DNA of 64,000 nt from an uncultured virus (IMG/VR IMGVR_UViG_3300042053_000001) (lineage: Duplodnaviria > Heunggongvirae > Uroviricota > Caudoviricetes). A program made the position numbers and the translations under genes. The stretch lies in the IMG/VR virus record IMGVR_UViG_3300042053_000001. The stretch is one strand, 5' to 3'. Under the pieces are notes generated by a model. The model was not told the DNA's origin. It did no database searches and saw only the letters and a list, made by a program, of their open reading frames with translations. How positions within the stretch are numbered: the first letter of the stretch is position 1; the number at the start of each line of letters is the position of its first letter. Below, one piece after another: positions 9,894-57,926 of this stretch.

Positions 9894-9899
9894 TACTGT

Positions 9900-9927: not shown

Positions 9928-9968
9928 TGAATCCCTAAAGTCTTCTATAAATACATAGGAAGTGTTTA

Positions 9969-40642: not shown

Positions 40643-41362
40643 ATGCGTACAATTCTAGTAACAAGCTCAAGAGGAGTTAAGTCTCAAGATCTTCATGTTA
40701 TGAGACATAGTCTCAATAAAGCTTTTCCTCACGCCAAGGTAGTGACGATTGCCCCTCATATAGATGATCGCTGGGGAAGTTTAAGAGTAACTGATCCTTA
40801 TAATGGACAAAGTATAGAAAAAATAGCTACAGACTTCTACTCCATTAAAAATGGGTCTGTAGCGGATGTTATCTACCATGCTATACAATCCAGGGAAGAC
40901 TATGTAAAAAGTCCTTGGGATTTAGTTGTAGCAGGATGTACATACGGAAGTACTTTAGGTCTGGATATCTATCACTCAGGGAATGCCTCAGCGTGCATGT
41001 TAGCAACAAGCTTACTATCCATCACCTCTCTATGTATCTCTCAAGAGATAGACCCACCTATTGAATCGGAAGTGGATGTTCCACCTATGTCGGAGGAAGA
41101 CTTAGAGCCTTCATTCGCACCTTCTTACAACACGTTACCAGACATCCTTAGAAAGGTTGAGACTTTCGAAGAAGGTAGTTGTTGGAATATAAACATTCCA
41201 CGTAAACCATCTATGGGAGTTAAATCTTGTCAGGTTTCTTCAAGTTCGATTATCCGACCAGTCTCACAGAATGTAAAACAGGTTCAAAATAATCTTGGGA
41301 GAGATATACAGGCTGTAAGTGAAGGATATTGCACAGTGTCAAGGATTGGGTATTACTTTTAA
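40643..41362 (+). CDS. SurE-like protein lacking the catalytic NDDG motif
   Basis: ILVTSSRG, TIAP, GSVADV, DLVVAG..YG.TLG.DIYHSG, WNINIP, DIQAVSEGYCTVS. Confidence 0.75.
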   Translation: MRTILVTSSRGVKSQDLHVMRHSLNKAFPHAKVVTIAPHIDDRWGSLRVTDPYNGQSIEKIATDFYSIKNGSVADVIYHAIQSREDYVKSPWDLVVAGCTYGSTLGLDIYHSGNASACMLATSLLSITSLCISQEIDPPIESEVDVPPMSEEDLEPSFAPSYNTLPDILRKVETFEEGSCWNINIPRKPSMGVKSCQVSSSSIIRPVSQNVKQVQNNLGRDIQAVSEGYCTVSRIGYYF

Positions 41363-41375: not shown

Positions 41376-42647
41376 GTGAAAGAAGATAATGGGGTTAGCC
41401 TGGAAGTTAGTGTTAGGAACTTCCAGGCTTTAGAGAATGTAGATCTTGTTATAAAAGGTTTTACAGTTGTAACAGGGGCTTCTAACACGGGTAAGTCTTC
41501 GTTAATAAGAGCTATAAGCTTCTGTTTATATGGGGATCAAGGCGAGACTTATATAAGGAGAGGTAAAGAGTATGCAGAGTGTAGTGTGACGCATACATTT
41601 CCATTATCTAATAAAAAGATAAGATATAGAAAAGTTTCGCAAAGCAGTACTAAAGAAGGGTTCTGTACAGAGTTCGAAATTGATGGAGTAGTTCATACTA
41701 AGTTAGGAAGGAGTCGCTCTATATCTATAGAGACAGGGTTTGAACCTGTCTCAACTACGTATGAAAGTCATAAGTTAAATCTGTCTTTACAACACGAAGG
41801 TTTATTTTTGATCTCAAGTCAGGGGTCAACTGTTGCTGAAGTTCTTCAATGTGTAGGAAGAGTAAATATCTTAACAGAGGCTTCAGGGTACGTTAAAGTA
41901 GACCACAGCCAAGAGACTTTAAAAAAGAAAGCTTGTTTAACTCTGGTAGAGGAGTGTCAAAAACGGTTTCAGGCGTTGGCATCTGTTCCAGAGATTAGTA
42001 GGAGTTTTTCAGAAGTAGACTCTTCTTTTGAAAAGATGGTAGGGGTCAGAAAGAAAAATAATAAGCTTCTAAACTTATTACAGGAGTTTTTAGGGATAAA
42101 GGTAGTCTCTCTCCCTAAGGCGTTGACACTATTCTCTCCTTTAACAGACTTGAAAATCCTCCCTTTACTTCGTGAATTACAGTCCATTAAACTTTTTACG
42201 TTACCTACCCACAAAGGTGCGAAAGATTTTGTAGATGTGGAAGATAGGTTAAAGAATATTCTCCTATTGAGAGAGCTTGAGAAGCTTCAAAGCAGTGTTC
42301 TACATTGTACAGTGGTACCTCCAGATAGTATGAAGTCTCCTTTTGTATCTTTAGTCTCTGATAAGAAAATCCCTCTTTTAGTAGAACTTTCTAACTTACA
42401 AGCTTCTCTAAGCTCTCACTCTACAAAGAATTTAAAACCTTTAGAGGAGAGTTTTAGACAAACAAGTCTAGGAGAGATTCCTCTTTATCAGGAGTTATGT
42501 ATGTTACAGGAAAGTCTTATAGATATTCAAACACGTCTTATAGAGGCTAAGGAGTCTATAACCAAGGTTGAAGAGTTAAAGAGAGAAATGGAAGTAGAGC
42601 TAGGAAATTGTCCTACTTGTGGAAGGAGTTTTGATAATGTTGAATAG
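41376..42647 (+). CDS. SbcC/Rad50-like ATPase, N-terminal half (Walker A, coiled coil, Zn hook)
   Basis: VRNFQ, VTGASNTGKSSLIRAI, C-terminal CPTCG; no signature or Walker B motif. Confidence 0.88.
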   Translation: MKEDNGVSLEVSVRNFQALENVDLVIKGFTVVTGASNTGKSSLIRAISFCLYGDQGETYIRRGKEYAECSVTHTFPLSNKKIRYRKVSQSSTKEGFCTEFEIDGVVHTKLGRSRSISIETGFEPVSTTYESHKLNLSLQHEGLFLISSQGSTVAEVLQCVGRVNILTEASGYVKVDHSQETLKKKACLTLVEECQKRFQALASVPEISRSFSEVDSSFEKMVGVRKKNNKLLNLLQEFLGIKVVSLPKALTLFSPLTDLKILPLLRELQSIKLFTLPTHKGAKDFVDVEDRLKNILLLRELEKLQSSVLHCTVVPPDSMKSPFVSLVSDKKIPLLVELSNLQASLSSHSTKNLKPLEESFRQTSLGEIPLYQELCMLQESLIDIQTRLIEAKESITKVEELKREMEVELGNCPTCGRSFDNVE

Positions 42648-43761
42648 TGAAATACCTACGATAGAACTACCTATGAACAATCCAAAAGTGTTTAGAGTTG
42701 TAGGAATTAATGACCCTCATTTCAGTGAAAGAGCCCCTTCAAATTTTAAAACTACTGAGGATTATTTTTCTCATGTAAAGGAGAACGTCACTAAGGTGAT
42801 AGAGAAGGCTCGTTCTTTGAATGCCGATGCAGTTCTGTGGGGTGGTGACATGTTCCACTCTATAAATGCAAAAGCAATCCCACACTCTCTAGTGTCACAG
42901 ATTTCTAGTTTACTTACTATGGTAGATACAGGTGGGGAAGATGAGAATCTTAGGTTTAAAGCTTTACCTTCTTTAGGGATAGCTGGAAATCATGATTACA
43001 AGAATGGGAGTGTAGAGGCAGGGCTATCAGGACAGCCTTTGGAAACTTTAATAAATTCAGGGATCTTCCATCTTTTAGATAGGACAGAGTATGTTTTCAC
43101 TTCGTCCGAGGATAAAAATTTCTCAGTTAGGATTGCAGGAGGATCTTACTATCACAGTAGAGCAGACCACGTTAAAGAGAAGAAGAGAAAAGGGGCTACC
43201 CATCTAATAGCTTTAGGTCACTTCTGGTTAGAAAAGTCTGACGGGGGTTTCTTTGGGGAAAAAGTATATGGTCATGGGTATTTTTCAGACAGTGAGGTAG
43301 ATACACTCATGGTAGGTCACCACCATGAGGATAAAGGCATCACAACGATAGGAAGGCAGGCGTTTGCGTCCCAAGGGTCAATATCTATTACAGGTCACCA
43401 TAATGAGTGTTTGGATAGAAAGCCCGCAGCTATTCTTATAGAACTAAAACCTGAGTATAGTGAAGAAGGTACTTTTTCTATTGATAGAAAAGTATACATA
43501 CTTAGACCTTCACAAAAGTCAGGAAGAGATTTAGTAGATGAGAATAAGGTGTCACAGAAGAAGAAAGAAAATAAACAAATATCAGATTTTCTTTCTCATG
43601 ACACAGGAGAAACCTCTATAGAATCCCCAATGGATTATCTTGGTGATATGAAACTTACAAAGGAGATAAAGGAAAGAACAGCAACATATATAAAAAGAGC
43701 AGAAGAGAGTGTTAAGGAAACAGAAATGATAGGTGAAGATAATGAAGGAAGTGCAGAATAA
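42637..43761 (+). CDS. sbcD: SbcD/Mre11-like metallophosphoesterase nuclease (ATG 42637; ORF open from 42619)
   Basis: NDPH, GGDMFH, GNHD, GH, GHHH motifs. Confidence 0.9.
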   Translation: MLNSEIPTIELPMNNPKVFRVVGINDPHFSERAPSNFKTTEDYFSHVKENVTKVIEKARSLNADAVLWGGDMFHSINAKAIPHSLVSQISSLLTMVDTGGEDENLRFKALPSLGIAGNHDYKNGSVEAGLSGQPLETLINSGIFHLLDRTEYVFTSSEDKNFSVRIAGGSYYHSRADHVKEKKRKGATHLIALGHFWLEKSDGGFFGEKVYGHGYFSDSEVDTLMVGHHHEDKGITTIGRQAFASQGSISITGHHNECLDRKPAAILIELKPEYSEEGTFSIDRKVYILRPSQKSGRDLVDENKVSQKKKENKQISDFLSHDTGETSIESPMDYLGDMKLTKEIKERTATYIKRAEESVKETEMIGEDNEGSAE

Positions 43762-44593
43762 CGAGAATTACCATGAGGATTACAGTAGTGTTGTAACGTA
43801 TTGGAATAAGGCAATATCATGGACAAAGTTCAATCAATCTATGAATTGTCAAAGGCAGTTACAGAATACCATTTTGGGTATGCCAAGTCCTGATTTCATA
43901 GATTATAATTACTATGCTGTTCTAGGTATAATAGTTCAAAGAGTGTTCGAGGTATACTTTAATAGACGGTTAAATATACAAAACAAGTATAGAAATGCAG
44001 CTTTCTATGACAAATTAATAGAGAGGGTGTGGAGCGCTATGTCTCCGGAGAAAGATACCGTTATCTACAGAGACGGAGAAACTCTTTCCAACTTAAACGA
44101 GGAGGTTATCTTCCTTTCTCACAAAGGGTTTAAGACATTTTCAGACATGGGAGTTCTTGGGTGTACTATTGACAGTGAAGTTCCATGGAGAACATGTTTA
44201 AGAGGCTTGACTCTATTTAGTAAGGTTGACTTTGTTCATGAGACTTTTTATGGAATCAAGATTTTTGACGGAAAATCTAATAAGGCGAGAGGTATATTAC
44301 CAGATCAGCTTCTCTTTAATTCTTTGACAGCTCTAGGTTCAAGTAAGACTGTTATAAGTGCGGGGTATGTATATTGGAGGTCTGGGTTTAGTAAGGAGGA
44401 TGTATCAGCCCCAGCCCTTAAAACTTTTAAAGATACAAAACTTCTAGCTCAAAAACCTCTATTCGACTCACTACAGAAGGGTATAAAACACGCCCTTCCA
44501 ACTTCGCCTTCACTTAGTAAGTGTAGGTTTTGTAAATGGGGAAGTCTTTGCTCAGACTCTCTTTATCCATCAGCCCATAACACAGGAGATTAA
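43733..44593 (+). CDS. PD-(D/E)XK nuclease (AddB/Cas4-like, Cys staple)
   Basis: SWT...NCQRQ, E, KVD, IFDGKS, QL, C-terminal CRFCKWGSLC. Confidence 0.8.
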   Translation: MKIMKEVQNNENYHEDYSSVVTYWNKAISWTKFNQSMNCQRQLQNTILGMPSPDFIDYNYYAVLGIIVQRVFEVYFNRRLNIQNKYRNAAFYDKLIERVWSAMSPEKDTVIYRDGETLSNLNEEVIFLSHKGFKTFSDMGVLGCTIDSEVPWRTCLRGLTLFSKVDFVHETFYGIKIFDGKSNKARGILPDQLLFNSLTALGSSKTVISAGYVYWRSGFSKEDVSAPALKTFKDTKLLAQKPLFDSLQKGIKHALPTSPSLSKCRFCKWGSLCSDSLYPSAHNTGD

Positions 44594-44594: not shown

Positions 44595-44873
44595 ATGGGA
44601 ACTAAAGAAAAATACGACGAACTTAATTCAAAAAGAGAAAAGTTAAATTCAGATTTATCATACTTAGCAGCTCAAGAGGCTTTGAAGGTTCAGAAGATCG
44701 AAGCGATAAAGAAATCTCTTGAAGACTTAGGGTGTTCTACAGAAGACCCTTCAGCTCAAATTAAGGTTCTTGAAGAGAAAGAGGCAGAAAACTTAAAAAA
44801 AATAGAGGAAGAGTTAAAATCCTTTGAGGACAGTTTAATAGAGTGTGAGAAGTCAGGAGGGATCAATGTCTAA
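44595..44873 (+). CDS. Small coiled-coil protein
   Basis: 92 aa, E/K heptads, AGGAG RBS. Confidence 0.75.
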   Translation: MGTKEKYDELNSKREKLNSDLSYLAAQEALKVQKIEAIKKSLEDLGCSTEDPSAQIKVLEEKEAENLKKIEEELKSFEDSLIECEKSGGINV

Positions 44874-46131
44874 AGTCGAGTTCTCTGTAGATTCCGATGT
44901 GTTTAAATCTCACATTGATTTTGTTAAGAGTGGGTTAGGTGTCTCGGATACAAATATAGCTAACCTTCTTGTTTTGATGCGGTTAGAAGGAACAACCTTG
45001 CATTTCTTCACATCAAATAATGATATGTTCTGTATCACCTCAACTGAAGTTTCTCTTAAAGGTTCTTGTGAAGGTGTGAAGAACTTTAGTATCTTGGGGT
45101 CAAAGTTAACCTCATTAGTTCAAGTAACAGATACTGAATCCATTACTTTTACGGTAGAAGAAGGTGTTGTAGGAATTAAGGTAGGGTTATTTCAAATAAG
45201 CTTGATTCAGCTTGACTCAAAAGTCATCAGTTCTCTATTAGATATGTACATAAGGTATGAGGATTGTTCAGATTATTTTGAGGTAGACAGCTCTATTCTA
45301 CGTGAATCTGTATTGTGCGCATCTTCTTGCACTACTGTAAAGTCAGTAAGGTCAGAGTTAATGCATGTTCAATTAAGAAGAGGGAAGGTTATATCTACAG
45401 ATGGTAGGAGAGTAATGATATATGATGCTCCAAATGCTTTCCCTAAGGATAAAGGTTTCAAGATACCTTCATCATGTATAACCCAATCTGTTATCTGTAT
45501 GAAGCACATTCCTTCTTCTATAATCAAAGTGTCTGAGGAGTCTTCCCATTTTGTGTTCTCTGGGAATAACGTAGGGTTTATTTTTGGAGTAAGAAAAGTA
45601 GACAGTGATATTCCAGACATAGAGAATCAGGTTTGTAATGTAGAAGTCTCCCCTGAAGACGAAATCTCTATTGATGCTGCTTCTCTTGATAATGCAGTGA
45701 AATCTACTTCTATAGGAATAGACACAGATAGTGAGGTCATTAGGTTTGAAGTTCATGGTGAAGATAGAAAAGCTTACATAGAGATATCTGCTTTAAATTC
45801 CTTACAGAAAAGGTCTTATAAAAAAGCTAGCGTCTCTAGGGGAGGTAGTAAGTCTATATCCTTCCCTATTTCCTATAAGCATCTTTTAGAAACTTTGAAG
45901 ACTTCTACAAAAGGAGGAATCATTGATATCGAGGTTAGAACACCAGGAAATTATCTAGTTGTAAAAGATGAAACAGATGTTAGAATCGTTTATACATTAA
46001 TTCCTTTTAGGACTTCAAACGAACTTCAGGAAGAAATTCCTCACCCTAACACTCAGAGTGTTGAACCTAATATGGAAGACGTTATTCAAGAGTCTGATGT
46101 AGTAGATTCTTCTCAAGAGTTAGATTTGTAG
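44866..46131 (+). CDS. dnaN: DNA sliding clamp, beta (DnaN)-like (ATG 44866; ORF open from 44845)
   Basis: ~390-aa three-domain pattern; LHFFTSNND, STDGRRV, RKVDSDIPDIE, FPISYKHLLETL, LIPFR. Confidence 0.78.
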   Translation: MSKVEFSVDSDVFKSHIDFVKSGLGVSDTNIANLLVLMRLEGTTLHFFTSNNDMFCITSTEVSLKGSCEGVKNFSILGSKLTSLVQVTDTESITFTVEEGVVGIKVGLFQISLIQLDSKVISSLLDMYIRYEDCSDYFEVDSSILRESVLCASSCTTVKSVRSELMHVQLRRGKVISTDGRRVMIYDAPNAFPKDKGFKIPSSCITQSVICMKHIPSSIIKVSEESSHFVFSGNNVGFIFGVRKVDSDIPDIENQVCNVEVSPEDEISIDAASLDNAVKSTSIGIDTDSEVIRFEVHGEDRKAYIEISALNSLQKRSYKKASVSRGGSKSISFPISYKHLLETLKTSTKGGIIDIEVRTPGNYLVVKDETDVRIVYTLIPFRTSNELQEEIPHPNTQSVEPNMEDVIQESDVVDSSQELDL

Positions 46132-46153: not shown

Positions 46154-46807
46154 ATGCAAGTGGAAGAAGATGTAGAGATAGACCTATTGCAAAAACTTGT
46201 ACAAGATGTAAAACTTAGAGTTAAAGTTCTTGAACACACTTTTTCAGATAGGGAAGCAGTGCTAAAGAAAGCTCAAGATGACTCAGAAATTACAGAGAGA
46301 GAGTTACAGGTTTTACAGCAAGTGAAAGAAGTTCTGTCTGCAATAACAGGTAAGTGTTTTAGTTCTGCTACTAAGAGGATAGAAGGTCTAGTTAATAAAG
46401 GGCTAAGTGAGGTTTTCGACGATCAGAACTTAGTATTCTCTATTCGGGCAAGTGTTTCAAGAAAGAAGAGTTTTGTATCATTTCACTTAAGAGAGGGTTC
46501 AACTGGTGAGGATCTTCCTTTAATATCCTCTTATGGAGGAGGTGTTCTTAGTGTTATAGCAATTCTTTTGAGGATTACAACAATTCACCTTCTAGAGAAA
46601 AGAAAGGTTTTGATCTTAGATGAGTCTTTATCTCAAGTCTCAGATGAGTATATAGAGAATTTATCAGCGTTCTTAAACAACCTGTGTGAGAACAGTGATT
46701 TTATAATCCTTCTAGTCACTCATCAAAGAAAGTTCACTACTTATGCATCAGAACATTATCGAATGGTAAAAGGGTCGAATTCGACTACTTTAGAAAGGGT
46801 AACATGA
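46154..46807 (+). CDS. SbcC/Rad50-like ATPase, C-terminal half
   Basis: Coiled coil, then signature SYGGG, Walker B LILDESL and H-loop LLVTH. Confidence 0.88.
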   Translation: MQVEEDVEIDLLQKLVQDVKLRVKVLEHTFSDREAVLKKAQDDSEITERELQVLQQVKEVLSAITGKCFSSATKRIEGLVNKGLSEVFDDQNLVFSIRASVSRKKSFVSFHLREGSTGEDLPLISSYGGGVLSVIAILLRITTIHLLEKRKVLILDESLSQVSDEYIENLSAFLNNLCENSDFIILLVTHQRKFTTYASEHYRMVKGSNSTTLERVT

Positions 46808-49800
46808 GTAATTCAGACGAAGATCTATATGAAGTCTACTCAACAATGCAAGAGCAAATGTTGCCTGAGGATCGTCAAGCTCTAGAAGGAGGTTTTACTT
46901 CTGGAGGAAATCTTATAGACTTCATTGATCTAAGACCTGAACACACTCTAGATGAGTCTAAAGTGTTAAACCCTCCCATTGTAAATGATGGTGAGGGTTT
47001 ACTCACTTTTTTACGTAAAACACTTCATAAGTTCCAATGTCCTTACGCATATATAGGGGGGGAGGCGAACTCCCCTTCTGTAGATACATATAAAGACTCA
47101 AAGTTAAAGATTCTTATTTGCAGACTGTCAACTTATAACTCTGTTAGTTTGTCCATGTCTCACTCACTAATGGCTCAAATATATGCAGAGATAGACAACG
47201 TATTTTGTGATCTAGCTTTTCTTCCAAGCCCTAAAGACTTCGAACTATTATGTAAAAATAGTTTCCCTGTATGGTTTGGGTTAAACACAAAGTTAGGTGC
47301 TAAGAAGTTCGATATTTTATCCATAACACATGCAGTAGTTATGGAGCAGGTTAATTTCATTCCTTTACTATGGGAGTCAGGGATACCTATATTTAAATCA
47401 CAGAGGATAGATGACGAGTCACAACCTATAATTCTGGTTGGGGGTTCCAATTCAGGGACAACAGCCCCTTTAAATGGAGAGTTTAAAGATAGTACAGGAA
47501 AGGTTCATAGAGGAATCATAGACTGTGTTATTTACGGTGATGGTGAAGAAGCTGCTAAACAGTTCGTAGAGATAGTTATAAGTGGTAGAAAAGAGGGTAA
47601 GACAAAAAGGGAAATCTTTAGAGATTGCCACGGAAATGTAGAGGGTTTTTATGAGCCAGATTGTTACGAACACAATTATGACGGGAAAGGTGTCTTAACC
47701 TCGATAACAAAGTCTAAAGGTAGAGAATATGCAGATCTACCGGTCGTACGCGCTACGGTTGAAAACTTAGATACTGTTAGAACATTAGAAGAAAAGATTT
47801 TACCTTACAGTGGTGACGGTACTTCCGTAGACGCTGCTATTGCAGGCTCAGTAGGGTGTATAGGTTCTGCGGGTTTAGGTGCATGTTCTTTTTGTAGAGA
47901 AGGGTCAGAAGGACCGTATAGAGAAAGATCTTTAGATAAAGTTATTGAAGCCATCGGGTTAGCTACAAAGAATCAAGGTACTAAAGAGGTAACATTCTTC
48001 TCTTTAAATTTTAACCAGTATGCAGACTTCTTCCCTCTAGTAGCGAAGAGTGTAGAGAAGGGTTATAAGGTTGGACTCATCTCACAACGGGTAGATATGC
48101 TTGCAGAAACACCTGAACAGATTTCTGTTCAGAAATGGTTAAAAAAATCTAATTATACTTTAGGGATAGAAGGAATTTCTGGAAGAACTAGAGCGTATTT
48201 AAACAAGAATCTTCAAGAGTGGGAGATTCTCAAGTGTGTTTATGTAATGATGAAAGAAGGGGCTTCGGAAATAAAATTGTTTCAAATTCTAACAGGGTTA
48301 GAAACTGATGTAGACATCGATGAGTTCAATACATTGATGGAGAAGATCAATGCAATAAGAGCTAATTTAGGGGCTTGTACAAGGTTTAGGATATCTTTCA
48401 CACCTCTATTTCCAGCAGCTTTCACAGCTCTACAGTTTGCACCTGTTAGAGCTGCTTTGAACCATGGGGCCAGGTTGGTAGATAAAGTTTTCATACGGGC
48501 TAAAGAACTAGGGTGGAATAGAAGGTTTTCAGTGACAAGGGAAGAACCTCTAATAGCAAACTCTATTACACATGGAGGTCGTGTACTTACAGATATTCTT
48601 GTTCGATCATACTTCTGTGATGATTATGTGTTCTACGGATGTATTCCTGAAGGAACTTGGGATAGGTGGGAGAGAAGAATAGATAAAGATCCTAATATAG
48701 ATATAGATAGAATCTGGGGAGAGAAAGAGAAAGATTATGTATTTCCTTGGGAGGACATTGCTTACTCTACTACCAAACAAATTTTGTGGTTAGGGTATGT
48801 AAAAGCTACTGCTTTTATGGGATCTACATATTGTCTATCTACTAGAACAGTTAAAGGGATATGTAAGTGGAGAGAGTGTGGGGCATGTGACCCTAAGAAA
48901 ACAGGTAAGCCTAATGCACAAATAATGAAAAATATTGTAGGAAGAAAGGTAGCCCCTACTATACCAGTATCAAAGATAGCAGAACTTGCTAAGACAAATG
49001 ATAAGAGCTACCACGTAAGAGTCTTATTTAGAACAGAAGATCCTATATACCGGTACGTTAGTAAAGGGTATTTTTCTTGTCAAATACCACGAGCCTTAAT
49101 GCTTACATCTCCTAAGTTTGATAATGCTTATATAACCAGTCTAGGACATGCCAGAATGTCGGCAGGAGCAAATACAACCAAGGATTGGACTTTTGGAAGC
49201 AACATCTATGACTTTTCTTTACGAGAAAAAGTGTCGCAGCAAGAGTTAAAATCTATTCTTCCTGAAGCTAACAAGTTAATAGGTGAGGGAAGTATTTTAG
49301 ATATAAAAGTAGAGACTCACCTAACTATGTTGAGAAACGACGTAGATTATGCTGTTTACAGTGTTTTCATCCCTAATAAAGGGGTGACGTTTCATAAGCT
49401 TAGTACTGATATAGATAGGTTTATTGAAGCTCGTAATAAGGGAAAGAAGGCTTTTATAAATGTAAAGGTTGCAAAGGGAAAGGATTCTGTTGCTACGGTT
49501 AAGAAACTACTTTTAGATAAGGATGTAAGAGCGGTTACTTACCAATTTACCCCTGAATTTAAAGGTACATTAGTTAGAATGGCTATATCTGCAAACTTCA
49601 ACCCTTTCGCTATGTTGGAAGCTATTACGAAGAGGAAGTTTCAGATGTGGAAAGAGTTCCCTATTTTCTGTGACGGGTATGTACAGGTTCCTAAGGTCGA
49701 AGGTGAGGTAGATTTGTTCGCTACTCTCCTAAATGAAAACCCTTTATGTAAAGCTACAGGGAGACAGATCGAGATAGACTTATTTACAGGTAAAGTTCTA

Positions 49801-49911
49801 CCTTCAGGATATAGTCTCAGCTCAGAAGATGGGATAGACAAAAACTATCCTATAGATATAGATGTCTTCTTCACCAAGAAATTAAAATCATTAGAGGAGT
49901 TATGCAAATAG
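46804..49911 (+). CDS. Large radical SAM protein, TIGR03960-like (annotated B12-binding), with probable DUF2344/TIGR03936-like C-terminal region
   Basis: YIGGEANS, FDILSIT, GIPIF..QR....PIILVGG, GDGEE, GFYEP, CIGSAGLGACSFC, PYRERS, TLGIEG.S.R.R..LNK, FTALQF, FPWE, CGAC. Confidence 0.82.
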   Translation: MSNSDEDLYEVYSTMQEQMLPEDRQALEGGFTSGGNLIDFIDLRPEHTLDESKVLNPPIVNDGEGLLTFLRKTLHKFQCPYAYIGGEANSPSVDTYKDSKLKILICRLSTYNSVSLSMSHSLMAQIYAEIDNVFCDLAFLPSPKDFELLCKNSFPVWFGLNTKLGAKKFDILSITHAVVMEQVNFIPLLWESGIPIFKSQRIDDESQPIILVGGSNSGTTAPLNGEFKDSTGKVHRGIIDCVIYGDGEEAAKQFVEIVISGRKEGKTKREIFRDCHGNVEGFYEPDCYEHNYDGKGVLTSITKSKGREYADLPVVRATVENLDTVRTLEEKILPYSGDGTSVDAAIAGSVGCIGSAGLGACSFCREGSEGPYRERSLDKVIEAIGLATKNQGTKEVTFFSLNFNQYADFFPLVAKSVEKGYKVGLISQRVDMLAETPEQISVQKWLKKSNYTLGIEGISGRTRAYLNKNLQEWEILKCVYVMMKEGASEIKLFQILTGLETDVDIDEFNTLMEKINAIRANLGACTRFRISFTPLFPAAFTALQFAPVRAALNHGARLVDKVFIRAKELGWNRRFSVTREEPLIANSITHGGRVLTDILVRSYFCDDYVFYGCIPEGTWDRWERRIDKDPNIDIDRIWGEKEKDYVFPWEDIAYSTTKQILWLGYVKATAFMGSTYCLSTRTVKGICKWRECGACDPKKTGKPNAQIMKNIVGRKVAPTIPVSKIAELAKTNDKSYHVRVLFRTEDPIYRYVSKGYFSCQIPRALMLTSPKFDNAYITSLGHARMSAGANTTKDWTFGSNIYDFSLREKVSQQELKSILPEANKLIGEGSILDIKVETHLTMLRNDVDYAVYSVFIPNKGVTFHKLSTDIDRFIEARNKGKKAFINVKVAKGKDSVATVKKLLLDKDVRAVTYQFTPEFKGTLVRMAISANFNPFAMLEAITKRKFQMWKEFPIFCDGYVQVPKVEGEVDLFATLLNENPLCKATGRQIEIDLFTGKVLPSGYSLSSEDGIDKNYPIDIDVFFTKKLKSLEELCK

Positions 49912-50510
49912 AGGTAAGACCATTAACACAAAGAGCAAAAGAATACATAAAATCAAGAGGGTACACGGAAGAGATTATAGAAAAAGAGAAGGTCTACAGT
50001 ATTACAGACCCTTATGACAGACCTTGTATAAGATGGCTATGTTACTCAATGTCAGGTGCTTTCATAGGATATAATGACAGGACTATAGAAGGTAAGAGAT
50101 TCTGCTGGGGTCATTCAAGCAGAAGGTTCCTTCCTACTCTCTACGGCACAGAGGAAGACTACAAAATCCTATTTGATACTGGTTCAATGATTCTTGTAGA
50201 AGGAATATTTGACAGAGTAGCTTTAAAGAGATGTTTTCCTAATCAAGCCGTTTTCTCTAGAATGACTGTAGGGTTATCAAACAGTATCTTCAATTTCATC
50301 TTGAGGTTCTGTTCGTGTTTAATCCTGTGCTATGATCAGGATGATGCTGGAGTGAAATCAACAAAAGATGTAGAGAGTAAACTTCTAGGAAAAGTACCTG
50401 TAATATCTTTAAGTTACCGTCATAAAGACCCCTCACTTTTCTTAGAGAAAAGAGGTATTAACGTAATGTTAGAGAAGTTCAAGACTCAAATAGATAGGTA
50501 TACATTATGA
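49902..50510 (+). CDS. DNA primase catalytic/TOPRIM domain (stand-alone)
   Basis: YIKSRG, GYNDR, LVEGIFD, CYDQDDAG, KDP; lacks the Zn-binding domain. Confidence 0.88.
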   Translation: MQIEVRPLTQRAKEYIKSRGYTEEIIEKEKVYSITDPYDRPCIRWLCYSMSGAFIGYNDRTIEGKRFCWGHSSRRFLPTLYGTEEDYKILFDTGSMILVEGIFDRVALKRCFPNQAVFSRMTVGLSNSIFNFILRFCSCLILCYDQDDAGVKSTKDVESKLLGKVPVISLSYRHKDPSLFLEKRGINVMLEKFKTQIDRYTL

Positions 50511-51637
50511 CGAATTTGAATCTGCCAAATAAGTACAGACCAAAAAACTTCTGTTCTGTATTAGGTCAAGATAGTGAAGTCAAGATACTGAGACAGATAG
50601 CAACCAAAGACTGGTTACCTAATGCTATTCTCATCTCGGGACCTTTCGGAACAGGTAAAACGACTCTTGCAAGATTATTGGCAAGATCTTTATTCTGTTC
50701 AGATAGGAAGAAGGATTCACAAGGGGTTTTGTGTGAACCTTGTGGGGAATGTAGAAGTTGTAAGTCTATGGATTCATTAAACCATCCTAACTACAGGGAG
50801 GTTGATTCTGCTTCTCATGGATCTGTTGCAGATATTAGATCTTTAAAAGGAGACTTGGCATATAGGTCAGGGAGTACAGGGGTTATAATAGTTCTTGATG
50901 AATGCCATCAGTTGACTAGTGCAGCACAGAATTCTCTTTTACAGATTTTAGAAGAAGGGAGTTCAAAAGATGTTCTGTTCATTTTTGCTACTACAGCCAA
51001 AGATAAGATGTTGCCAACCATCTTATCTAGATGTATCAATTTGAATATGAGACTTCTCACTCCTACTCAAGTTAGTACGAGATTACAACAGGTGTGTGGT
51101 TTAGAAGGTATTAAACACACAGGCTCTGCACTTAAACTCATAGCTTCTTATATAAAAGGTCATATGAGAGATGCTCTAATGTTATTAGAGCAATTGTCAA
51201 ACACAACAGATATCATTACTGAAGACATAGTTAGAACCTATTTAAGGTTAGACAAAGACATTGAGATTTATAAGTTCTTAAGTGAGAGCGACGTAAAGAC
51301 AAATTTACAGACGTTAGAGGCGTTATTGTGTACATACCATTCATCAGAGTTATTAAAGTGTTTAGTAACTATACTGGTAGAGGCTTTTAAAGTTTCTAAG
51401 GGTTTACCCGCAGCAACTGAGGTAGACTCTGTGTGGTTGAAAAAGGTTGCAACTACTAGAGGAGAGGATAATTTGTTAAACATGGCAGAGAGTTTGTTAC
51501 TAAAGTCGAACAGCCCTGTATCCTTTATACAAGAAGGGATTGCGGTAATTGGAGGTGTTCTGTTTCGACATAAAGCCGTTGAGGTTAGTGTTCAGCAGAA
51601 TAGTTCTGATTTTCGAAGGAAGAAAAGTTCGTGTTAA
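50507..51637 (+). CDS. dnaX: Clamp-loader ATPase, DNA pol III gamma/tau-like
   Basis: KYRP..F..VLGQ, GPFGTGKTT, PCGECRSC, EVDSAS, LDECHQLT..AQN.LL..LEE, TILSRC, G.MRDA. Confidence 0.95.
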   Translation: MTNLNLPNKYRPKNFCSVLGQDSEVKILRQIATKDWLPNAILISGPFGTGKTTLARLLARSLFCSDRKKDSQGVLCEPCGECRSCKSMDSLNHPNYREVDSASHGSVADIRSLKGDLAYRSGSTGVIIVLDECHQLTSAAQNSLLQILEEGSSKDVLFIFATTAKDKMLPTILSRCINLNMRLLTPTQVSTRLQQVCGLEGIKHTGSALKLIASYIKGHMRDALMLLEQLSNTTDIITEDIVRTYLRLDKDIEIYKFLSESDVKTNLQTLEALLCTYHSSELLKCLVTILVEAFKVSKGLPAATEVDSVWLKKVATTRGEDNLLNMAESLLLKSNSPVSFIQEGIAVIGGVLFRHKAVEVSVQQNSSDFRRKKSSC

Positions 51638-52629: not shown

Positions 52630-52663
52630 GAAACCTTTACAGGTTTCCCCTCTATGATACAAT
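52630..52663 (+). promoter_or_regulatory. Putative promoter for nrdJ overlapped by a 7-bp inverted repeat
   Basis: TTTACA-16 bp-TACAAT with TGn extension; GAAACCT-TTAC-AGGTTTC covers the -35. Confidence 0.4.
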
Positions 52664-52701
52664 TCTTTCCCCTAACTAAGAATTTTAAAAGGAGATTAAG
52701 T

Positions 52702-54558
52702 ATGGTGGACCCCTACAAACAGCAGATAGTTCTAGATGTTTGGAAAGAAAAGTATTCGACTAAAGGGGAGGTGTGCATCGATGAAAGTTTTAAACGTGTT
52801 GTAGAGGCTATAATACCTTTAACTGTAAAGAACAAGCACCGAGAGAAAATTCTTCAGGCGTTAAAAGATAGGCATCAGATTTTAGCTGGCAGGGTTTTAT
52901 CCGGAGCAGGTTCTTCAAAGAGAGTGACCTTATTAAATTGTTTTGTATCACCTAAGATAGAGGATTCCTTAGATTCTATTATGGATTGTCTAGCTACATC
53001 TGCGTTCACTCAACAGATGGGTGGTGGAATAGGTATGGACTTCTCTAACTTAAGACCTTGTGGGGCTACAGTTTTCAGGACTGGCTCTGAGTCTAGCGGA
53101 GTAATACCTTTTATGCATATGTGGGATGCCATGTGTAAAACTATTATGTCCTCAGGATCTCGTAGAGGTGCAATGATGGGGACACTGTCTGTATACCACC
53201 CAGATATTGAAAGATTCATAGACGTAAAGAAGAAGAGTGGAAGCTTAGAGATGTTCAATCTCTCTATTCTAATACCGGATAGCTTTATGCGTTCTGTAGC
53301 GGATGATGGTATAGTTCATTTGAAATGCCCTAACCCTAGGGTAGACGAAACTTACACAGAAATCTTAGAAGAAGGTGGCCAGAAGTTTTATGTGTATAAG
53401 ACTATTAAGGCTAGAGATTTGTGGGAAAGAATAACTAAATCCACTTATGTTTATAGTGAACCAGGTCTTATTTTTATTGATAGGGTAAACAAGCTCAACA
53501 ACCTTTACTATTGTGAGTCTATATCCGCTACAAACCCTTGTGGAGAGCAACCCCTACCTCATAATGGTTGTTGTAACTTAGGTCATATAAATCTTGCTGG
53601 CATGGTCAAGAATTCTTTTACAGATGAAGCAAGTATAGATTGGGAATTGTTGAAGGAGACTGCAACAGGGTTAACGTATTTTCAAGATGCAGTTATCGAG
53701 AACTCTTTATACCCTACCGAAGAACAAAGAACAGAGGCTTTAGATAAGCGCAGATTAGGGCTTGGGTATACAGGTCTAGCGAACATGCTTCAGCAGTTAA
53801 AGGTTGCCTACGGTACAGATAAGGCTGTTTCCATAACACGAGAAGTTTCTGAGGCTTTTGCTTGTGCAGTTTATAGAGCCTCAATCAGTCTATCTAAAGA
53901 GAAAGGGAGTTTCCCAAGTTTTGACGTAGATAATTTTCTGAAAGCTTCTTTTGTTACCAAGCTTCCAAAGGATATAAGGGATGGTATTAGAAAACACGGA
54001 ATTAGAAACGGGGTGTTGCTAACTATAGCCCCTACAGGTACAAGTTCTATTATCGCAGGGAATGTAAGTTCCGGTATAGAGCCTGTGTTTGCATTTACGT
54101 ATACAAGAAAGGTTCTTGTTAAAGATGAGTTTAACGAAGATACTAAGAGACAGTACGAAGTTTACGACTATGGTTATCTAAAGTTTTATTCTACTTTACA
54201 CCCTGATAAAGAACTAGGATCTGTCCCTCTTCCTCACTATATGAATACAGCAAAAGATTTGACAGTGGTGTCTCATTTAAAGATGGTAGCAGCAGCTCAA
54301 GAGTGGGTAGATTCTGCTATTTCAAAAACAGTTAATGTACCTACAGATCTTTCGTATGAAGACTTTAAAAACATCTATTTAGCGGCTTATTCTCTCGGGT
54401 TAAAGGGGTGTACAACTTATAGAGAGTGTGCGGAGTCAGGGAGGATGTCTGTGCTACAGTCATCAGAGATGGTATGTAAAACCTGTAATTCTTCTATCCC
54501 TTCTAATTCAGGTTCATGTGCTATATGCCCTATATGCGGTGTTGGTTCATGCGGGTAA
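52702..54558 (+). CDS. nrdJ: Class II (adenosylcobalamin-dependent) ribonucleotide reductase (ATG 52702; ORF open from 52654)
   Basis: NCFV, GGGIGMDFS.LRP, RRGAMM, EPGLIFID, TNPCGEQPL, CNLG, TIAPTGT, LKGCTTYR, C-terminal Zn ribbon; no nrdB nearby. Confidence 0.92.
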   Translation: MVDPYKQQIVLDVWKEKYSTKGEVCIDESFKRVVEAIIPLTVKNKHREKILQALKDRHQILAGRVLSGAGSSKRVTLLNCFVSPKIEDSLDSIMDCLATSAFTQQMGGGIGMDFSNLRPCGATVFRTGSESSGVIPFMHMWDAMCKTIMSSGSRRGAMMGTLSVYHPDIERFIDVKKKSGSLEMFNLSILIPDSFMRSVADDGIVHLKCPNPRVDETYTEILEEGGQKFYVYKTIKARDLWERITKSTYVYSEPGLIFIDRVNKLNNLYYCESISATNPCGEQPLPHNGCCNLGHINLAGMVKNSFTDEASIDWELLKETATGLTYFQDAVIENSLYPTEEQRTEALDKRRLGLGYTGLANMLQQLKVAYGTDKAVSITREVSEAFACAVYRASISLSKEKGSFPSFDVDNFLKASFVTKLPKDIRDGIRKHGIRNGVLLTIAPTGTSSIIAGNVSSGIEPVFAFTYTRKVLVKDEFNEDTKRQYEVYDYGYLKFYSTLHPDKELGSVPLPHYMNTAKDLTVVSHLKMVAAAQEWVDSAISKTVNVPTDLSYEDFKNIYLAAYSLGLKGCTTYRECAESGRMSVLQSSEMVCKTCNSSIPSNSGSCAICPICGVGSCG

Positions 54559-54563
54559 ATAGA

Positions 54564-54974
54564 ATGTCTGATAAACAACACATCTGTAAGGATATTCGAG
54601 ATTTACTGGCTAGTGGTTTAGATTGTAATGTTCAAGATGTGTATGGGAACTCTTGCCTCCATTATTCATGTGTGAATGCAAGGTCTGATATCAAGCAGTT
54701 ATTATTAAAGAGACTTAAAGTTAAGGAAAGGTGTCCTAGTAAGGAGAAATATTTGAAATTATTTTCACTTTGTATTATACACGGTGTTAGATGCACCCAA
54801 ACTCTTATAGAGTTTGGGTGTAAGGTATCTATAAGAAACATGTTAGGTCACTCTTCTCTATACGTTGCTTGTTATAATGATCATTTAGACGTTTTGAGAT
54901 ACCTAATACCTGAAGAACAGAAGGTCGTAAGATCAGATGTAAAAAAGTATCTTGCTATATTGTCAGAGTGTTAA
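54564..54974 (+). CDS. Ankyrin-repeat protein 1 (degenerate; ORF open from 54516)
   Basis: QDVYGNSCLHYSC, NMLGHSSLYVAC. Confidence 0.8.
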   Translation: MSDKQHICKDIRDLLASGLDCNVQDVYGNSCLHYSCVNARSDIKQLLLKRLKVKERCPSKEKYLKLFSLCIIHGVRCTQTLIEFGCKVSIRNMLGHSSLYVACYNDHLDVLRYLIPEEQKVVRSDVKKYLAILSEC

Positions 54975-54987
54975 GAGGTCCTCTAAA

Positions 54988-55878
54988 ATGGTTTTAGACT
55001 TACTGGATGCCTGTAGAAAAGGTAACACTGTACAGGTTAGATCTATTATAAAGGGTAAGAACAGTTTCAAGTTTCAAGTTTCAAGTAAAGGAGAGACACC
55101 TTTACATTTAGCTTGTAAATATGGTCATTCTGCCATAGTAAAAATCCTGACAACAAAAGGGGAAAACCTAAACAGTAAAACATTAATAGGTCAAACTCCT
55201 TTACATTTAGCATGTTTAAATACCGTTACGAAAGTGGTAACAATTATGCTTAAAAAAGGTGCAGACATGTTAGAGGGAGATTGTAGGGGAGATTCTCCTT
55301 TACACTATGTCGCGTTAAAAGGTTCTATGGAATTCTTAAATCTTTTTATTGGGACAGGGGTTTCTTTAGATAAGAAGAATCTATTTGGGAACTCTGCTCT
55401 ACACCACGCCTGTTTCTGTGGTCATTATAAGGTCGTAGAAGCTCTTGTAGGTTCAGGGTGTAATATAGACGTCACTAATAACGAGATGTTCCTTCCTATC
55501 CACATAGCAAGCTCTGAGGGCAAGACTTCTTGTGTAGAGTTGTTGTTAAATCTAGGAGTTTCTCCAGAAATAAAAAGTGGTTCTGAAGGGAACACTTGTT
55601 TACATCTTGCCTCACTGGCTGGGAGAGAAGATACAGTACAAGTGCTGTTAGATAAATCTGCTCGTATTTCGGCGGTTAACGATCATGGCGACTCCTCGTT
55701 ACATTTAGCTTGTATGAAAGATCATTTATCAGTGTGTAAACTTCTTCTATCTAGCGGGTCTAGTATCTTACTTAAAAATAAATTAGGTTTCTCCCCTAGA
55801 CAGTTAGCTACTAGCAGAGGTCATATTAGAATAGTTAATTTAATGAAGTCCGCAGAGAGTTTTGGGAAAATAGACTAG
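54988..55878 (+). CDS. Ankyrin-repeat protein 2 (~8 repeats; ORF open from 54952)
   Basis: Repeated GETPLHLAC/GDSPLHY/GNSALHHAC at ~33-aa spacing. Confidence 0.95.
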   Translation: MVLDLLDACRKGNTVQVRSIIKGKNSFKFQVSSKGETPLHLACKYGHSAIVKILTTKGENLNSKTLIGQTPLHLACLNTVTKVVTIMLKKGADMLEGDCRGDSPLHYVALKGSMEFLNLFIGTGVSLDKKNLFGNSALHHACFCGHYKVVEALVGSGCNIDVTNNEMFLPIHIASSEGKTSCVELLLNLGVSPEIKSGSEGNTCLHLASLAGREDTVQVLLDKSARISAVNDHGDSSLHLACMKDHLSVCKLLLSSGSSILLKNKLGFSPRQLATSRGHIRIVNLMKSAESFGKID

Positions 55879-55903
55879 AAGTTATACATGTAGTCCAAAG
55901 AAT

Positions 55904-55993
55904 GGCAGCCACACGCGCTGTACAATACCTGTAGGAAAAGGCAGCCACACGCGCTGTACAATACCTGTAGGAAAAGGCAGCCACACGCGCTGT
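55904..55993. repeat. 36-bp tandem repeat x2.5 with a GC-rich core, intergenic
   Basis: ggcagccacacgcgctgtacaatacctgtaggaaaa at 55904 and 55940; first 18 bp again at 55976. Confidence 0.95.
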
Positions 55994-56039
55994 GAAACTA
56001 CAGTAGGAAGAATAAGTAGAGGTTAGAGGGTAGGTTAGA

Positions 56040-56549
56040 ATGCATCAATCAGAAGACTTGAATAAGGACTTACAAGAGTATTGCCTCATAGGGGATATTC
56101 AGAAAATTGTTAGGTCTATAGATAAAGGGGCAGATAGGTTTTGTGTAGATGAAGAAGGTCGTACTTGTCTTCATACAGCTTGCATAGCAGGAAATGTTGT
56201 AGTTGTTAGATTTCTTTTAAATTTTACATACCGTGTTGACGAGGATGCAAAGGATAAGTTTGGGCTCACTCCTTTTCACTACGCATGTAAGTTGGGCTAT
56301 AAAGAGATATGCATTATTCTTGTTAGTTATGGATGTCTTATAGACTGTATAGGTTCAGAAGGTACAGCTCTTCTTTTAGCTTGTAGAAATGGGTATGTAG
56401 ATATAGCCAGACTTCTAATTAAAAGAGGTGCAGATGTGAACTATTGTGATCAGTTTGGAAAGAGTATTCTTTCAAATTGTAGAATAAAAGGTTGTTTAGA
56501 TATATTGTCTTTATTACTAGACAGTGGAGTTCTTGTTGACGATGGTTAA
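56040..56549 (+). CDS. Ankyrin-repeat protein 3
   Basis: GRTCLHTAC, GLTPFHYAC, TALLLAC..G. Confidence 0.93.
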   Translation: MHQSEDLNKDLQEYCLIGDIQKIVRSIDKGADRFCVDEEGRTCLHTACIAGNVVVVRFLLNFTYRVDEDAKDKFGLTPFHYACKLGYKEICIILVSYGCLIDCIGSEGTALLLACRNGYVDIARLLIKRGADVNYCDQFGKSILSNCRIKGCLDILSLLLDSGVLVDDG

Positions 56550-56706
56550 AGAGCCAAAGTAACAGAATTATTTTTAATGTTTTAATTTAGGTGTAAATTT
56601 AATAAAATATTTATACTATACATTCTATTCTTATAAATAAATTATTCGTTGTTAGTTCAATAAGGTTTATTTTAAAAATTTGTACTTTCTGCGAAAAATA
56701 AAAATG

Positions 56707-56735
56707 TTGATTAAATTTTCGCTTTCTGTTAATAT
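56707..56735 (+). promoter_or_regulatory. Putative sigma70-type promoter in an AT-rich intergenic island
   Basis: TTGATT-17 bp-TAATAT with TGn extension, 33 bp before ATG 56768. Confidence 0.45.
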
Positions 56736-56767
56736 TTAAAAATCAATATTATATTTTAGGTGGTAAA

Positions 56768-57859: not shown

Positions 57860-57926
57860 ACCCACAATTTATTTTACATATCTTAGAATCCGTTTTAATC
57901 GGTGTTTAGGTTAAGAAATCTTTACC

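Follow-up and report, generated by a model that had tools for sequence, protein, structure and literature searches.

A predicted fused radical SAM enzyme of an uncultured phage, related to the bacterial TIGR03960/TIGR03936 pair and encoded among replication genes

The 64,000-nucleotide stretch of DNA from an uncultured virus of the Caudoviricetes that we analyzed here (the window) encodes, as its sequence leads us to conclude with very little doubt, an intact radical SAM enzyme in which the bacterial pair TIGR03960 and TIGR03936 is fused into a virus-borne 'long form'. From the N-terminus onwards, the protein is predicted to consist of an acidic extension, a Rossmann-like domain (Radical_SAM_N2), the radical SAM core with the [4Fe-4S] cluster ligands C352, C361 and C364 and a five-residue glycine-rich insertion, a second metal site of four cysteines, a strongly diverged DUF2344/TIGR03936 domain and a decayed zinc ribbon (Table 1), and its gene appears to be the most strongly conserved one of the phage lineage. 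The reading frame is open over 1035 codons and is closed by TAG (49909-49911). As this length is reached at about 37% G+C and more than 50 homologues of the 1035-residue protein share 51-68% identity with it, a chance open reading frame is excluded. The radical SAM assignment made in a preliminary description of the window holds, since Pfam Radical_SAM (PF04055) matches residues 360-508 with 32.3 bits and thus above its gathering cut-off of 29.5; Radical_SAM_N2 (PF19864) matches residues 125-285 (60.7 bits, 1.4e-16).

Table 1. Features of the radical SAM gene and of neighboring genes in the window
Feature	Coordinates	Strand	Basis or remark
Sliding-clamp-like gene, two genes upstream	44845..46131	+	phrog_947
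Upstream gene, 217 aa, ABC/SMC-type C-terminal ATPase lobe	46154..46807	+	phrog_15167; ABC ATPase match
Whole gene: predicted fused radical SAM enzyme, phage long form of TIGR03960 + DUF2344-like domain	46804..49911	+	
Acidic N-terminal extension, residues 1-72	46804..47019	+	19-sequence alignment; phage-clade-specific, not in bacterial relatives
Rossmann-like N-domain, residues 73-290, Radical_SAM_N2	47020..47673	+	PF19864 match; Atlas clusters 0.95
Radical SAM core, residues 346-560	47839..48483	+	PF04055, residues 360-508; solved relatives QCMT 9ccb, RimO and MiaB match here only
Cluster motif C352-x8-C361-x2-C364, CIGSAGLGACSFC	47857..47895	+	Codons read C-IGSAGLGA-C-SF-C; alignment
Second metal motif C677-x9-C687-x4-C692-x2-C695	48832..48888	+	Invariance; intein sites
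Diverged TIGR03936/DUF2344-like domain, residues 729-957	48988..49674	+	hhalign 92.6% and 97.1%
C-terminal tail, residues 958-1035: decayed zinc ribbon, then conserved VFFTKKL	49675..49908	+	Clade survey
Downstream gene, DnaG Toprim part, 10-nt overlap	49902..50510	+	Profile matches
Clamp loader (DnaX-like), 4-nt overlap with Toprim gene	50507..51637	+	Profile matches
NrdJ, class II (adenosylcobalamin) ribonucleotide reductase	52654..54558	+	TIGR02504

The TIGR03960 family, named in the preliminary description, was recovered by an HMM search in which positions 3-605 of the 605 profile positions, that is, the profile from end to end, align with residues 73-695 (E 2.2e-48), although the score of 165.2 bits lies well under the curated cut-off of 462.3. 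Judged from its sequence, the protein is a divergent member of this uncharacterized family (rSAM_fuse_unch), to which NCBI gives the name 'B12-binding radical SAM protein'. No published function for TIGR03960/TIGR03936 was found in the literature, and more than 601 genome stretches are among the matches listed. The bacterial counterparts, in which TIGR03960 and TIGR03936/PF10105 are either fused or adjacent, have the same domain order as the phage enzyme and are collinear with it over about 800 columns (hhalign of the phage clade against the fused bacterial proteins: 100%, E 1e-53, 796 columns, query 82-966, template 8-837). The cysteine triad of the cluster and the C-terminal cysteine motif are common to both, their C-domains are homologous at the profile level, and the phage protein retains 73 of the 173 columns that are invariant in 13 bacterial members, including all metal ligands. 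It differs from the bacterial proteins in having CX8CX2C instead of CX3CX2C, in the additional acidic N-terminal extension and zinc-ribbon tail, in a C-domain that is too diverged for the PF10105 or TIGR03936 HMM, and in the location of its gene, which lies in a block of replisome genes and not in front of RNase E/G. In the tree, the phage proteins form a monophyletic clade (SH-aLRT 100) within a long-form branch apart from the canonical bacterial enzymes. The phage enzyme is a virus-specific offshoot of the widespread bacterial pair, and the gain of the N-terminal extension and the zinc ribbon by a clade on a separate branch would fit a changed job. The phage branch provides a new handle on TIGR03960/TIGR03936: here, the pair occurs as one fused polypeptide that is strongly constrained, coupled to replisome genes and repeatedly invaded by inteins at its metal ligands.

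The CX8CX2C spacing that had been noticed before is correct, but it does not constitute a motif of its own. In a 19-sequence alignment, C352, C361 and C364 are invariant and aligned with the canonical CX3CX2C of Planctomycetota and bacterial relatives, so that the x8 spacing is explained by the five-residue insertion in the cluster loop. Among 55 proteins of the phage clade, the loop is x8 in 49, x7 in two and x6 in one, and it is interrupted by an intein in the other three; in bacterial relatives it is x3 in all 63 sequences of one set and in 113 of the 119 sequences of a second (the remaining six are fragments). The second cysteine cluster, likewise pointed out earlier, is confirmed by the same alignment, in which C677, C687 and C692 do not vary, bacteria included; C695 is likewise invariant throughout a set of 15 diverse long forms. 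These four residues are predicted to form an auxiliary site for either an Fe-S cluster or zinc. The gene is an intein hot spot, with insertions exactly at metal-binding cysteines; in at least 19 of 107 homologues the protein is interrupted by inteins, the +1 residues being C352, C364, C677, C687, S349, S400, T497 and T533.

The acidic extension shows 45% mean identity within the phage clade. The N-domain that follows matches PF19864 alone and is B12-binding-like by family name only; PF02310 is absent from the 1035-residue protein at E<=1, and precomputed matches to it exist for 22 of the 120 fused bacterial homologues listed and for none of the phage-clade homologues listed. The use of cobalamin, which had been called probable, is only a possibility. 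The best solved match to the core by sequence is the class I B12-dependent radical SAM glutamine C-methyltransferase QCMT/MgmA (PDB 9CCB; E 2.2e-6 with a phage-inclusive profile, 1e-12 with a bacterial profile). A section of PMC12931638 describes for QCMT a Rossmann-type N-domain followed by a TIM-barrel core, a layout like that of the phage protein; however, only about 170 residues align, all in the radical SAM core, and QCMT acts on protein and has no DUF2344 domain. The cores of RimO (2e-8 to 4e-8) and MiaB (0.006, both with the bacterial profile) are also similar, and the three-part layout of an N-terminal Rossmann-like domain, core and C-terminal substrate-binding domain is the same. In contrast to these enzymes, the C-domain of the phage protein is DUF2344-like instead of TRAM, and its N-domain is devoid of conserved cysteines in the family alignment, so that an MTTase-type auxiliary cluster is absent there.

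The fusion with TIGR03936/DUF2344 that had been proposed is apparent at the level of profile-profile comparison, but not from Pfam or NCBIfam HMMs applied to the C-terminal region. No Pfam family was detected at E<=10 on residues 601-1035 or 681-1035, the TIGR03936 HMM gave no match in a near-identical record (G001) at E<=0.01, and PF10105 appeared below threshold in three of 30 distant long-form relatives (18.9-22.9 bits, cut-off 23.8). With hhalign, the value for DUF2344 rose from 1.9% for a narrow clade profile to 92.6% and then 97.1% (E 6.9e-11, 207 columns, template positions 19-238 of 242) when the profile was widened, and 24 control comparisons remained at or below 2.0%. DUF2344 itself is similar to the tRNA pseudouridine synthase I TruA (hhalign 82.6%, E 9.7e-6), and a part of PMC7955657 reports that Pfam pairs it with PseudoU_synth_1. 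The TruA resemblance of the phage domain runs through DUF2344 only, its direct comparison with TruA yielding 0.2%. TruA and DUF2344 have a common core near 'LN..LP.G/D-I.v ... Y.Y.I', and the catalytic 'RTDAGVHA' of TruA faces a non-acidic 'pLpVGmES' in DUF2344, albeit in low-confidence columns, so that the domain is probably not a pseudouridine synthase. Residues 729-957 probably represent a TruA-type nucleic-acid-binding module. The CxxC...CxxC zinc ribbon of the tail is kept in 24 of 55 clade members and missing in 31, among them the window protein, in which it is reduced to C982.

The genetic environment agrees with the replisome setting described earlier. The gene overlaps both neighbors as stated, by 4 nt upstream, where the preceding frame stops at 46807 within ATGA, and by 10 nt downstream, where the Toprim frame starts at 49902. 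The identity given for the downstream neighbor is correct; it is the Toprim part of DnaG, and the N-terminal part of the primase is encoded apart (32486-33013). The upstream neighbor matches phrog_15167 'ATPase' (8e-21) and, among ABC ATPases, the segment with the signature and Walker-B motifs, and an SbcC-like N-half at 41376-42647 terminates in a CPTCG zinc-hook motif; that this neighbor is the C-half of a split SbcC, as had been claimed, is plausible. Only four homologues, with 27-31% identity, were found for the sliding-clamp-like protein. The B12-dependent ribonucleotide reductase reported nearby is indeed of class II (TIGR02504, 526 bits versus a cut-off of 400). Synteny extends to three other loci, one of which (L001) has the same order RecA-SurE-SbcC(N)-SbcD-x-clamp-ATPase-rSAM-Toprim-clamp loader-FEN-NrdJ, while the other two (L002 and L004) share the segment rSAM-Toprim-clamp loader. 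The radical SAM gene is translationally coupled to replisome genes. It is also under stronger constraint than terminase or polymerase: in a complete 118-kb relative (G007) with a GC content of 56.6%, very different from the value of about 37% here, for which 49 ORFs were tested and 31 are shared, the radical SAM protein ranks first with 63.4% identity over 1027 residues, ahead of terminase (53.5%), NrdJ (52.4%), major capsid protein (44.4%), Pol A (38.3%) and clamp (30.9%). This relative carries ThyX and a dCTP-deaminase-like gene.

The enzyme would reductively cleave SAM to a 5'-deoxyadenosyl radical that is applied to a nucleic acid, which would be held by the TruA-like C-domain and, where retained, the zinc ribbon. 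A nucleic-acid role is a reasonable proposal because the bacterial homologues adjoin RNase E/G and DUF2344 resembles TruA. For the phage, the DNA on which the replication and recombination proteins work would be the likeliest substrate, and we grant it somewhat less than an even chance; RNA is a tentative candidate, and so is a substrate that is neither. On DNA, the radical could serve post-replicative C-H functionalization of a base, for example C-methylation, provided that the N-domain is a cobalamin binder, or the repair of a lesion. Synteny with replisome genes, the overlaps with both neighbors and the lack of phage tRNA genes count in favor of DNA. Radical SAM enzymes acting on DNA exist, namely spore photoproduct lyase and the radical SAM enzyme in the hypermodification of thymidine in phages, but these belong to unrelated subfamilies, no sequence link to the phage protein was seen, and none of the genes accompanying thymidine hypermodification turned up in the complete relative. 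A scan of 78 ORFs of this relative at E<=1e-6 also revealed no DNA methyltransferase, TGT/DpdA-type or other hypermodification gene, which counts against DNA. So does the only functional hint for the family, the RNase E/G adjacency, which points to RNA. Furthermore, TruA itself is a tRNA enzyme, phage gene order mirrors expression timing in addition to function, and enzymes of demanding chemistry are usually highly conserved whatever their substrate. We regard it as rather unlikely, in this specific form, that the enzyme travels with the replisome and installs an undescribed carbon-linked modification of phage DNA or reverses a DNA lesion by radical chemistry. If this is true, phages would have a novel type of DNA chemistry, the enzyme would be the first in the B12-like radical SAM group to act on DNA, and the reaction catalyzed by the orphan TIGR03960/TIGR03936 family as a whole would come to light.

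Alternatively, the phage enzyme may have the same function in infected cells as the bacterial pair, which would be the radical modification of rRNA, tRNA or another RNA processed beside the substrates of RNase E/G. This is possible, though doubtful, and the same degree of doubt applies to the idea that the phage uses its own copy for tuning translation or RNA turnover or for acting on primer RNA. The bacterial gene neighborhoods argue for RNA: RNase E/G lies directly downstream of the bacterial homologue in 48 of 80 loci (median gap 23.5 nt), or in 39 of the 58 loci with enough downstream sequence, and further followers in the 80 loci are L21 (22), L27 (15), Prp (13) and Obg (28); some Desulfobacterales have rnpA-yidC-jag in place of these RNase E/G neighbors. 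The likeness of DUF2344 to a tRNA enzyme points in the same direction, as do the presence of MiaB and RimO among the nearest solved relatives by sequence and the succession of Rossmann-like domain, core and nucleic-acid-binding C-domain, which parallels MiaB. However, the phage clade forms a deep separate branch, its gene resides in a replication block in four of four loci, and RNase E/G is encoded neither among the window ORFs scanned nor in the complete relative. As tRNA genes are absent from both phages, there is no phage-encoded tRNA substrate, and for an auxiliary helper of translation, the highest conservation among all genes of its lineage would be unexpected. Should RNA nevertheless be the substrate, the phage enzyme would disclose the task that the bacterial family has next to RNase G.

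A protein or small molecule as the substrate, with the C-domain as a mere docking module, appears improbable. Conceivable reactions are, for instance, the C-methylation or thiolation of a protein of the replisome or the ribosome, or a step in the metabolism of nucleotides or cofactors; the nearest solved relatives by sequence include the protein modifiers QCMT/MgmA and RimO, NrdJ and a SurE-like nucleotidase are nucleotide-metabolism neighbors, and the bacterial L21/L27/Prp neighbors could hint at a ribosomal protein. On the other hand, the alignment with QCMT and RimO is confined to the radical SAM core, the TruA-like domain and the zinc ribbon point to nucleic-acid binding, and beyond the replisome genes no candidate substrate gene co-travels. 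Finally, a loss of radical activity, in which the stretched loop would have disabled SAM cleavage and left a structural or nucleic-acid-binding accessory of the replisome, may be suggested by the non-canonical spacing and the decayed zinc ribbon of the window protein but is highly improbable, because the cysteine triad is invariant, the core is the best-conserved part of the protein (74% mean identity in the phage clade), inteins target exactly the cluster cysteines, and a portion of PMC9477430 lists loops of x4 to x11, CX8CX2C among them, for other radical SAM groups.

The family identity of the radical SAM protein in the replication block is firm. Its open frame translates into 1035 residues, in which Pfam recognizes Radical_SAM_N2 (residues 125-285) and Radical_SAM (residues 360-508), each above its cut-off. 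The preliminary description had named the family TIGR03960, and the NCBIfam model indeed aligns end to end (profile positions 3-605 of 605 on residues 73-695, E 2.2e-48), but the score of 165 bits stays below the curated cut-off of 462 bits. No PHROGs family matches the protein, and no functional study of the TIGR03960/TIGR03936/DUF2344 family was found in the literature available without subscription. The unusual cluster motif and the overlap with both neighbours, both noted before, are borne out at the nucleotide level: the cluster codons, CIGSAGLGACSFC, specify C352-x8-C361-x2-C364, the ATG shares 4 nt with the TGA of the upstream frame, and the Toprim frame begins 10 nt upstream of the radical SAM TAG. 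Purine-rich, Shine-Dalgarno-like stretches precede both the radical SAM start and that of the downstream Toprim gene. The G+C content of the gene (0.37) equals that of the remainder of the window, and promoter-like and terminator-like sites around it show no excess over shuffled expectation.

A word-indexed search retrieved 375 relatives. Among them, 52 listed proteins of about 1030-1800 residues are 51-68% identical to the query, two further, intein-bearing homologues 38-45%, two proteins of about 950 residues labelled Planctomycetota 33% and the 612-residue bacterial TIGR03960 proteins about 26%; a virus record of 72.6 kb (G001, estimated 68% complete) encodes the identical protein. The phage database yielded five weak matches (22-26% identity). 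A match in Microcystis phage MaAM05 was set aside, since the gene adjoins trpS, mqnC and ispG in a stretch at the start of that record that looks cellular (L108). In alignments, C352, C361 and C364 fall on the canonical CX3CX2C of bacterial and Planctomycetota proteins, and C677, C687 and C692 are invariant across all aligned proteins, these two groups included. The x8 loop is a trait of the phage clade (49 of 55 members), the two nearest outgroups in the tree have loops of x7 and x6, and among 15 long forms from a broader sample it is x3, x5, x6, x7 or x8. The spacing is thus unusual for the TIGR03960 family, yet not unprecedented, because variants from CX4 to CX11, CX8CX2C included, are given for other megaclusters in passages of the paper on RadicalSAM.org (PMC9477430).

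The domain at residues 729-957 (C-domain) is a diverged counterpart of DUF2344. The link to TIGR03936/DUF2344 drawn in the preliminary description finds support in profile-profile comparison, but not in family models: TIGR03936 has no match in G001, and no Pfam model matches the C-terminal region even at E<=10. TIGR03936 does match in the bacteria Synechococcus elongatus, Thermus thermophilus, Bacteroides thetaiotaomicron and Thermotoga maritima. When full-length profiles were compared, the match to 31 bacterial proteins in which TIGR03960 and PF10105 are fused reached 100% probability over 796 columns and spanned the C-domain; as the core might by itself account for the extension of such a match, the C-domain was also compared alone. 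A narrow clade profile gave 1.9% against DUF2344, a profile widened with 28 distant relatives 92.6% against the bacterial DUF2344 region, and comparison with a 77-sequence DUF2344 alignment, gathered from 80 bacterial loci, 97.1% (E 6.9e-11, 207 collinear columns, residues 729-957 on positions 19-238 of 242), so that significance appeared only once the profile was widened. In 24 control comparisons with eight unrelated families, the maximum was 2.0%. Sub-threshold PF10105 matches were seen in three of 30 distant relatives scanned. When a C-domain profile of six sequences (the window and further loci) was searched against 1.84 billion representatives, 54 proteins were found at E<=1e-3; in the full-length ones the C-domain sits at the C-terminus of a protein of 700-2660 residues, and the shorter ones are mostly fragments. 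Split phage forms are not claimed, because most short matches in the stand-alone search are fragments or post-intein pieces; a single short protein (P0257) has a methionine at the domain start. Behind the C-domain, most long forms carry a CxxC...CxxC zinc ribbon, which is kept in 24 of the 55 clade members, while the other 31, the window protein included, retain the first cysteine alone. The conserved C-terminal VFFTKxL of the radical SAM protein might be a clamp-binding motif; the termini of the other replisome proteins have no motif in common.

The DUF2344 alignment in turn matches an alignment of 35 TruA sequences (82.6%, E 9.7e-6), and Pfam pairs DUF2344 with PseudoU_synth_1, according to passages of PMC7955657. 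The phage-family profile compared with TruA directly gave only 0.1-0.2%, and the catalytic RTD stretch of TruA faces no acidic residue in DUF2344, in columns that are unreliable. A PDB sequence search with the C-domain returned chance-level uS3 matches alone (E 0.3), and an ESM Atlas search with residues 700-1035 reached a top score of 0.81, which we treat as a lead only. Among solved structures, sequence matches are confined to the radical SAM core and lead to QCMT/MgmA (9ccb), RimO and MiaB; 9CCB itself is described as a class I B12-dependent enzyme (PMC12931638; PMC11796369). Cobalamin binding by the phage protein is a possibility at most; PF02310 does not match that protein, though 22 of the 120 fused homologues listed from bacteria have a precomputed PF02310 match.

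In the tree (48 chosen rows, 816 columns, intein-bearing proteins and fragments left out), the 11 phage-clade rows form a single branch (SH-aLRT 100) within a 23-row long-form group (SH-aLRT 100) to which the two Planctomycetota proteins also belong. All 23 rows of canonical bacterial enzymes stand apart (support 100, branch length 0.95), with P0279 and P0283 placed in between. As the root is a midpoint only, no direction of transfer is claimed. Within the clade, mean identity is 74% in the core, 62% in the N-domain and 50% in the DUF2344-like domain. Large insertions, recognized by HSP breaks, occur in 16 of 107 homologues, and three more were found by eye; Pfam labels them as intein and LAGLIDADG domains. 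Their +1 residues are C352, C364, C677, C687, S349, S400, T497 and T533. P0259 (2662 residues) harbours five intein-splicing stretches in one gene, and P0038, P0042, P0047, P0054 and P0055 have two inteins each.

Locus L001 is part of G007, a related phage record of 118,081 bp that has terminal repeats, is rated as complete and has a G+C content of 56.6%. Matches in it were found for 31 of the 49 window ORFs, and among these the radical SAM protein ranks first (63.4% over 1027 residues, 1.36 bits per residue), ahead of terminase (53.5%), NrdJ (52.4%), DnaB (50.8%), portal (48.8%), capsid (44.4%), Pol A (38.3%) and the clamp (30.9%), for which just four homologues are detectable. Despite these 31 ORFs and a common gene order, the two genomes differ by about 20 points in G+C (about 37% in the window); their hosts are presumably very different.

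Coordinates of features in the window phage, in gene order, and in related records
Feature	Position	Remarks
894-aa ORF	319-3003	upstream of lysin; no PHROGs, NCBIfam or PDB match
Terminase, portal, protease		
Major capsid protein	11443-12834	
Large tail protein	24110-28156	in tail module
SNF2 helicase, DnaB		
DnaG zinc-finger/N part	32486-33013	profile positions 35-153
Pol A		
Six ORFs		no Pfam or PHROGs family; one weakly matches holB in NCBIfam
RecA/UvsX		
SurE-like 5'/3'-nucleotidase	40643-41362	between RecA and SbcC; 28% identity in G007
SbcC N-half	41376-42647	ends ...CPTCGRSFDNVE
SbcD		
Two unknown ORFs		
286-aa ORF	43733-44593	one of the two unknown ORFs between SbcD and the clamp; Cys-rich end …CRFCKWGSLC…; 29% identity in G007; no match in family and PDB searches
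Clamp		
ABC-type ATPase C-lobe	46154-46807	
Radical SAM gene	46804-49911 (+)	
Cluster motif codons	47857-47895	CX8CX2C
DnaG Toprim part	49902-50510	profile positions 242-357
Clamp loader, FEN, NrdJ		
Ankyrin-repeat genes	54516-64000	at least 12, tandem array
Fpg/Nei-type glycosylase	L103:3935-4744	G007
AP endonuclease 2	L104:15497-16339	G007
CobT-like VWA protein	L104:12569-14380	G007
RlaP nucleotidyltransferase	L107:8872-9666	G007
Cellular-looking start of MaAM05	MW495066.1, bases 1-10591	L108; ispG, mqnC, trpS, TIGR03960-like gene

A survey of phage neighbourhoods, called for in the preliminary description, places the gene in the replication block in all four cases covered, i.e., the window, L001/G007 and two further loci (L002 and L004). 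The order from RecA to NrdJ is conserved in L001/G007, and the part from the radical SAM gene through Toprim to the clamp loader (and FEN) in L002 and L004. Scans of IMG/VR for further loci gave 0, 1 and 0 loci, and L008 was dropped on account of stops and a chimeric look. PDB sequence searches with three neighbouring ORFs returned nothing significant. For bacteria, more than 601 matches were obtained, of which the 80 best were surveyed, a sample biased toward the Desulfobacterota and Bacillota of the query. These loci have a different setting: in 48 of the 80 the next gene on that strand encodes RNase E/G (39 of 58 when counting just the loci whose downstream sequence extends for at least 2.5 kb; median gap 23.5 nt), often followed by L21, Prp, L27 and Obg.

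We tentatively favour DNA as the substrate of the phage enzyme, at somewhat less than an even chance, because the replisome setting is invariable, the gene is translationally coupled, the virus-specific branch is deep and has added domains, and tRNA genes are absent from both the window and G007. That the enzyme acts on RNA, as the association of the bacterial homologues with RNase G and the kinship of DUF2344 to TruA would suggest, is only a little less probable; a protein or small molecule is an unlikely substrate, and a non-catalytic role is very improbable. By analogy, the enzyme would cleave SAM at the cluster bound by C352, C361 and C364, would have a further metal site and would hold the nucleic acid in its C-domain.

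G007 has one radical SAM gene; it also encodes ThyX, a dCTP-deaminase-like protein, an Fpg/Nei glycosylase, an AP endonuclease, a ligase, a CobT-like VWA protein, RlaP and NADAR. With the glycosylase, the AP endonuclease, the CobT-like protein and RlaP, its repair repertoire is unusually rich by phage standards. Neither a DNA methyltransferase nor a TGT-type gene was detected among the 78 G007 ORFs scanned at E<=1e-6. DnaG primase is divided between two genes 17 kb apart in the window, and both parts also occur in G007. SbcC likewise appears split, at its zinc hook, the ABC-type C-lobe following 3.5 kb downstream of the N-half, beyond SbcD, two unassigned ORFs and the clamp gene; L001 has the same split order.

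The window represents a tailed phage with every gene on one strand. Judged by sequence similarity, its virion module is mosaic, with a GTA-type tail as in alphaproteobacterial phages and a capsid nearest to those of SPO1-like Bacillus phages: phages of Rhodobacter and Caulobacter have 'GTA TIM-barrel-like' proteins with which the large protein of the tail module shares about 40% identity, and the capsid protein is just about 29% identical to SPO1-type capsids. Ankyrin genes were found in none of the 78 G007 ORFs scanned; the array in the window recalls the 'ankyphage' idea, as outlined in bioRxiv 10.1101/608950. No RNA run is among the listed matches of sequencing runs to the window DNA, and the contigs examined show just this phage, in one study. 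The runs that contain the window DNA are labelled 'mollusc metagenome'.
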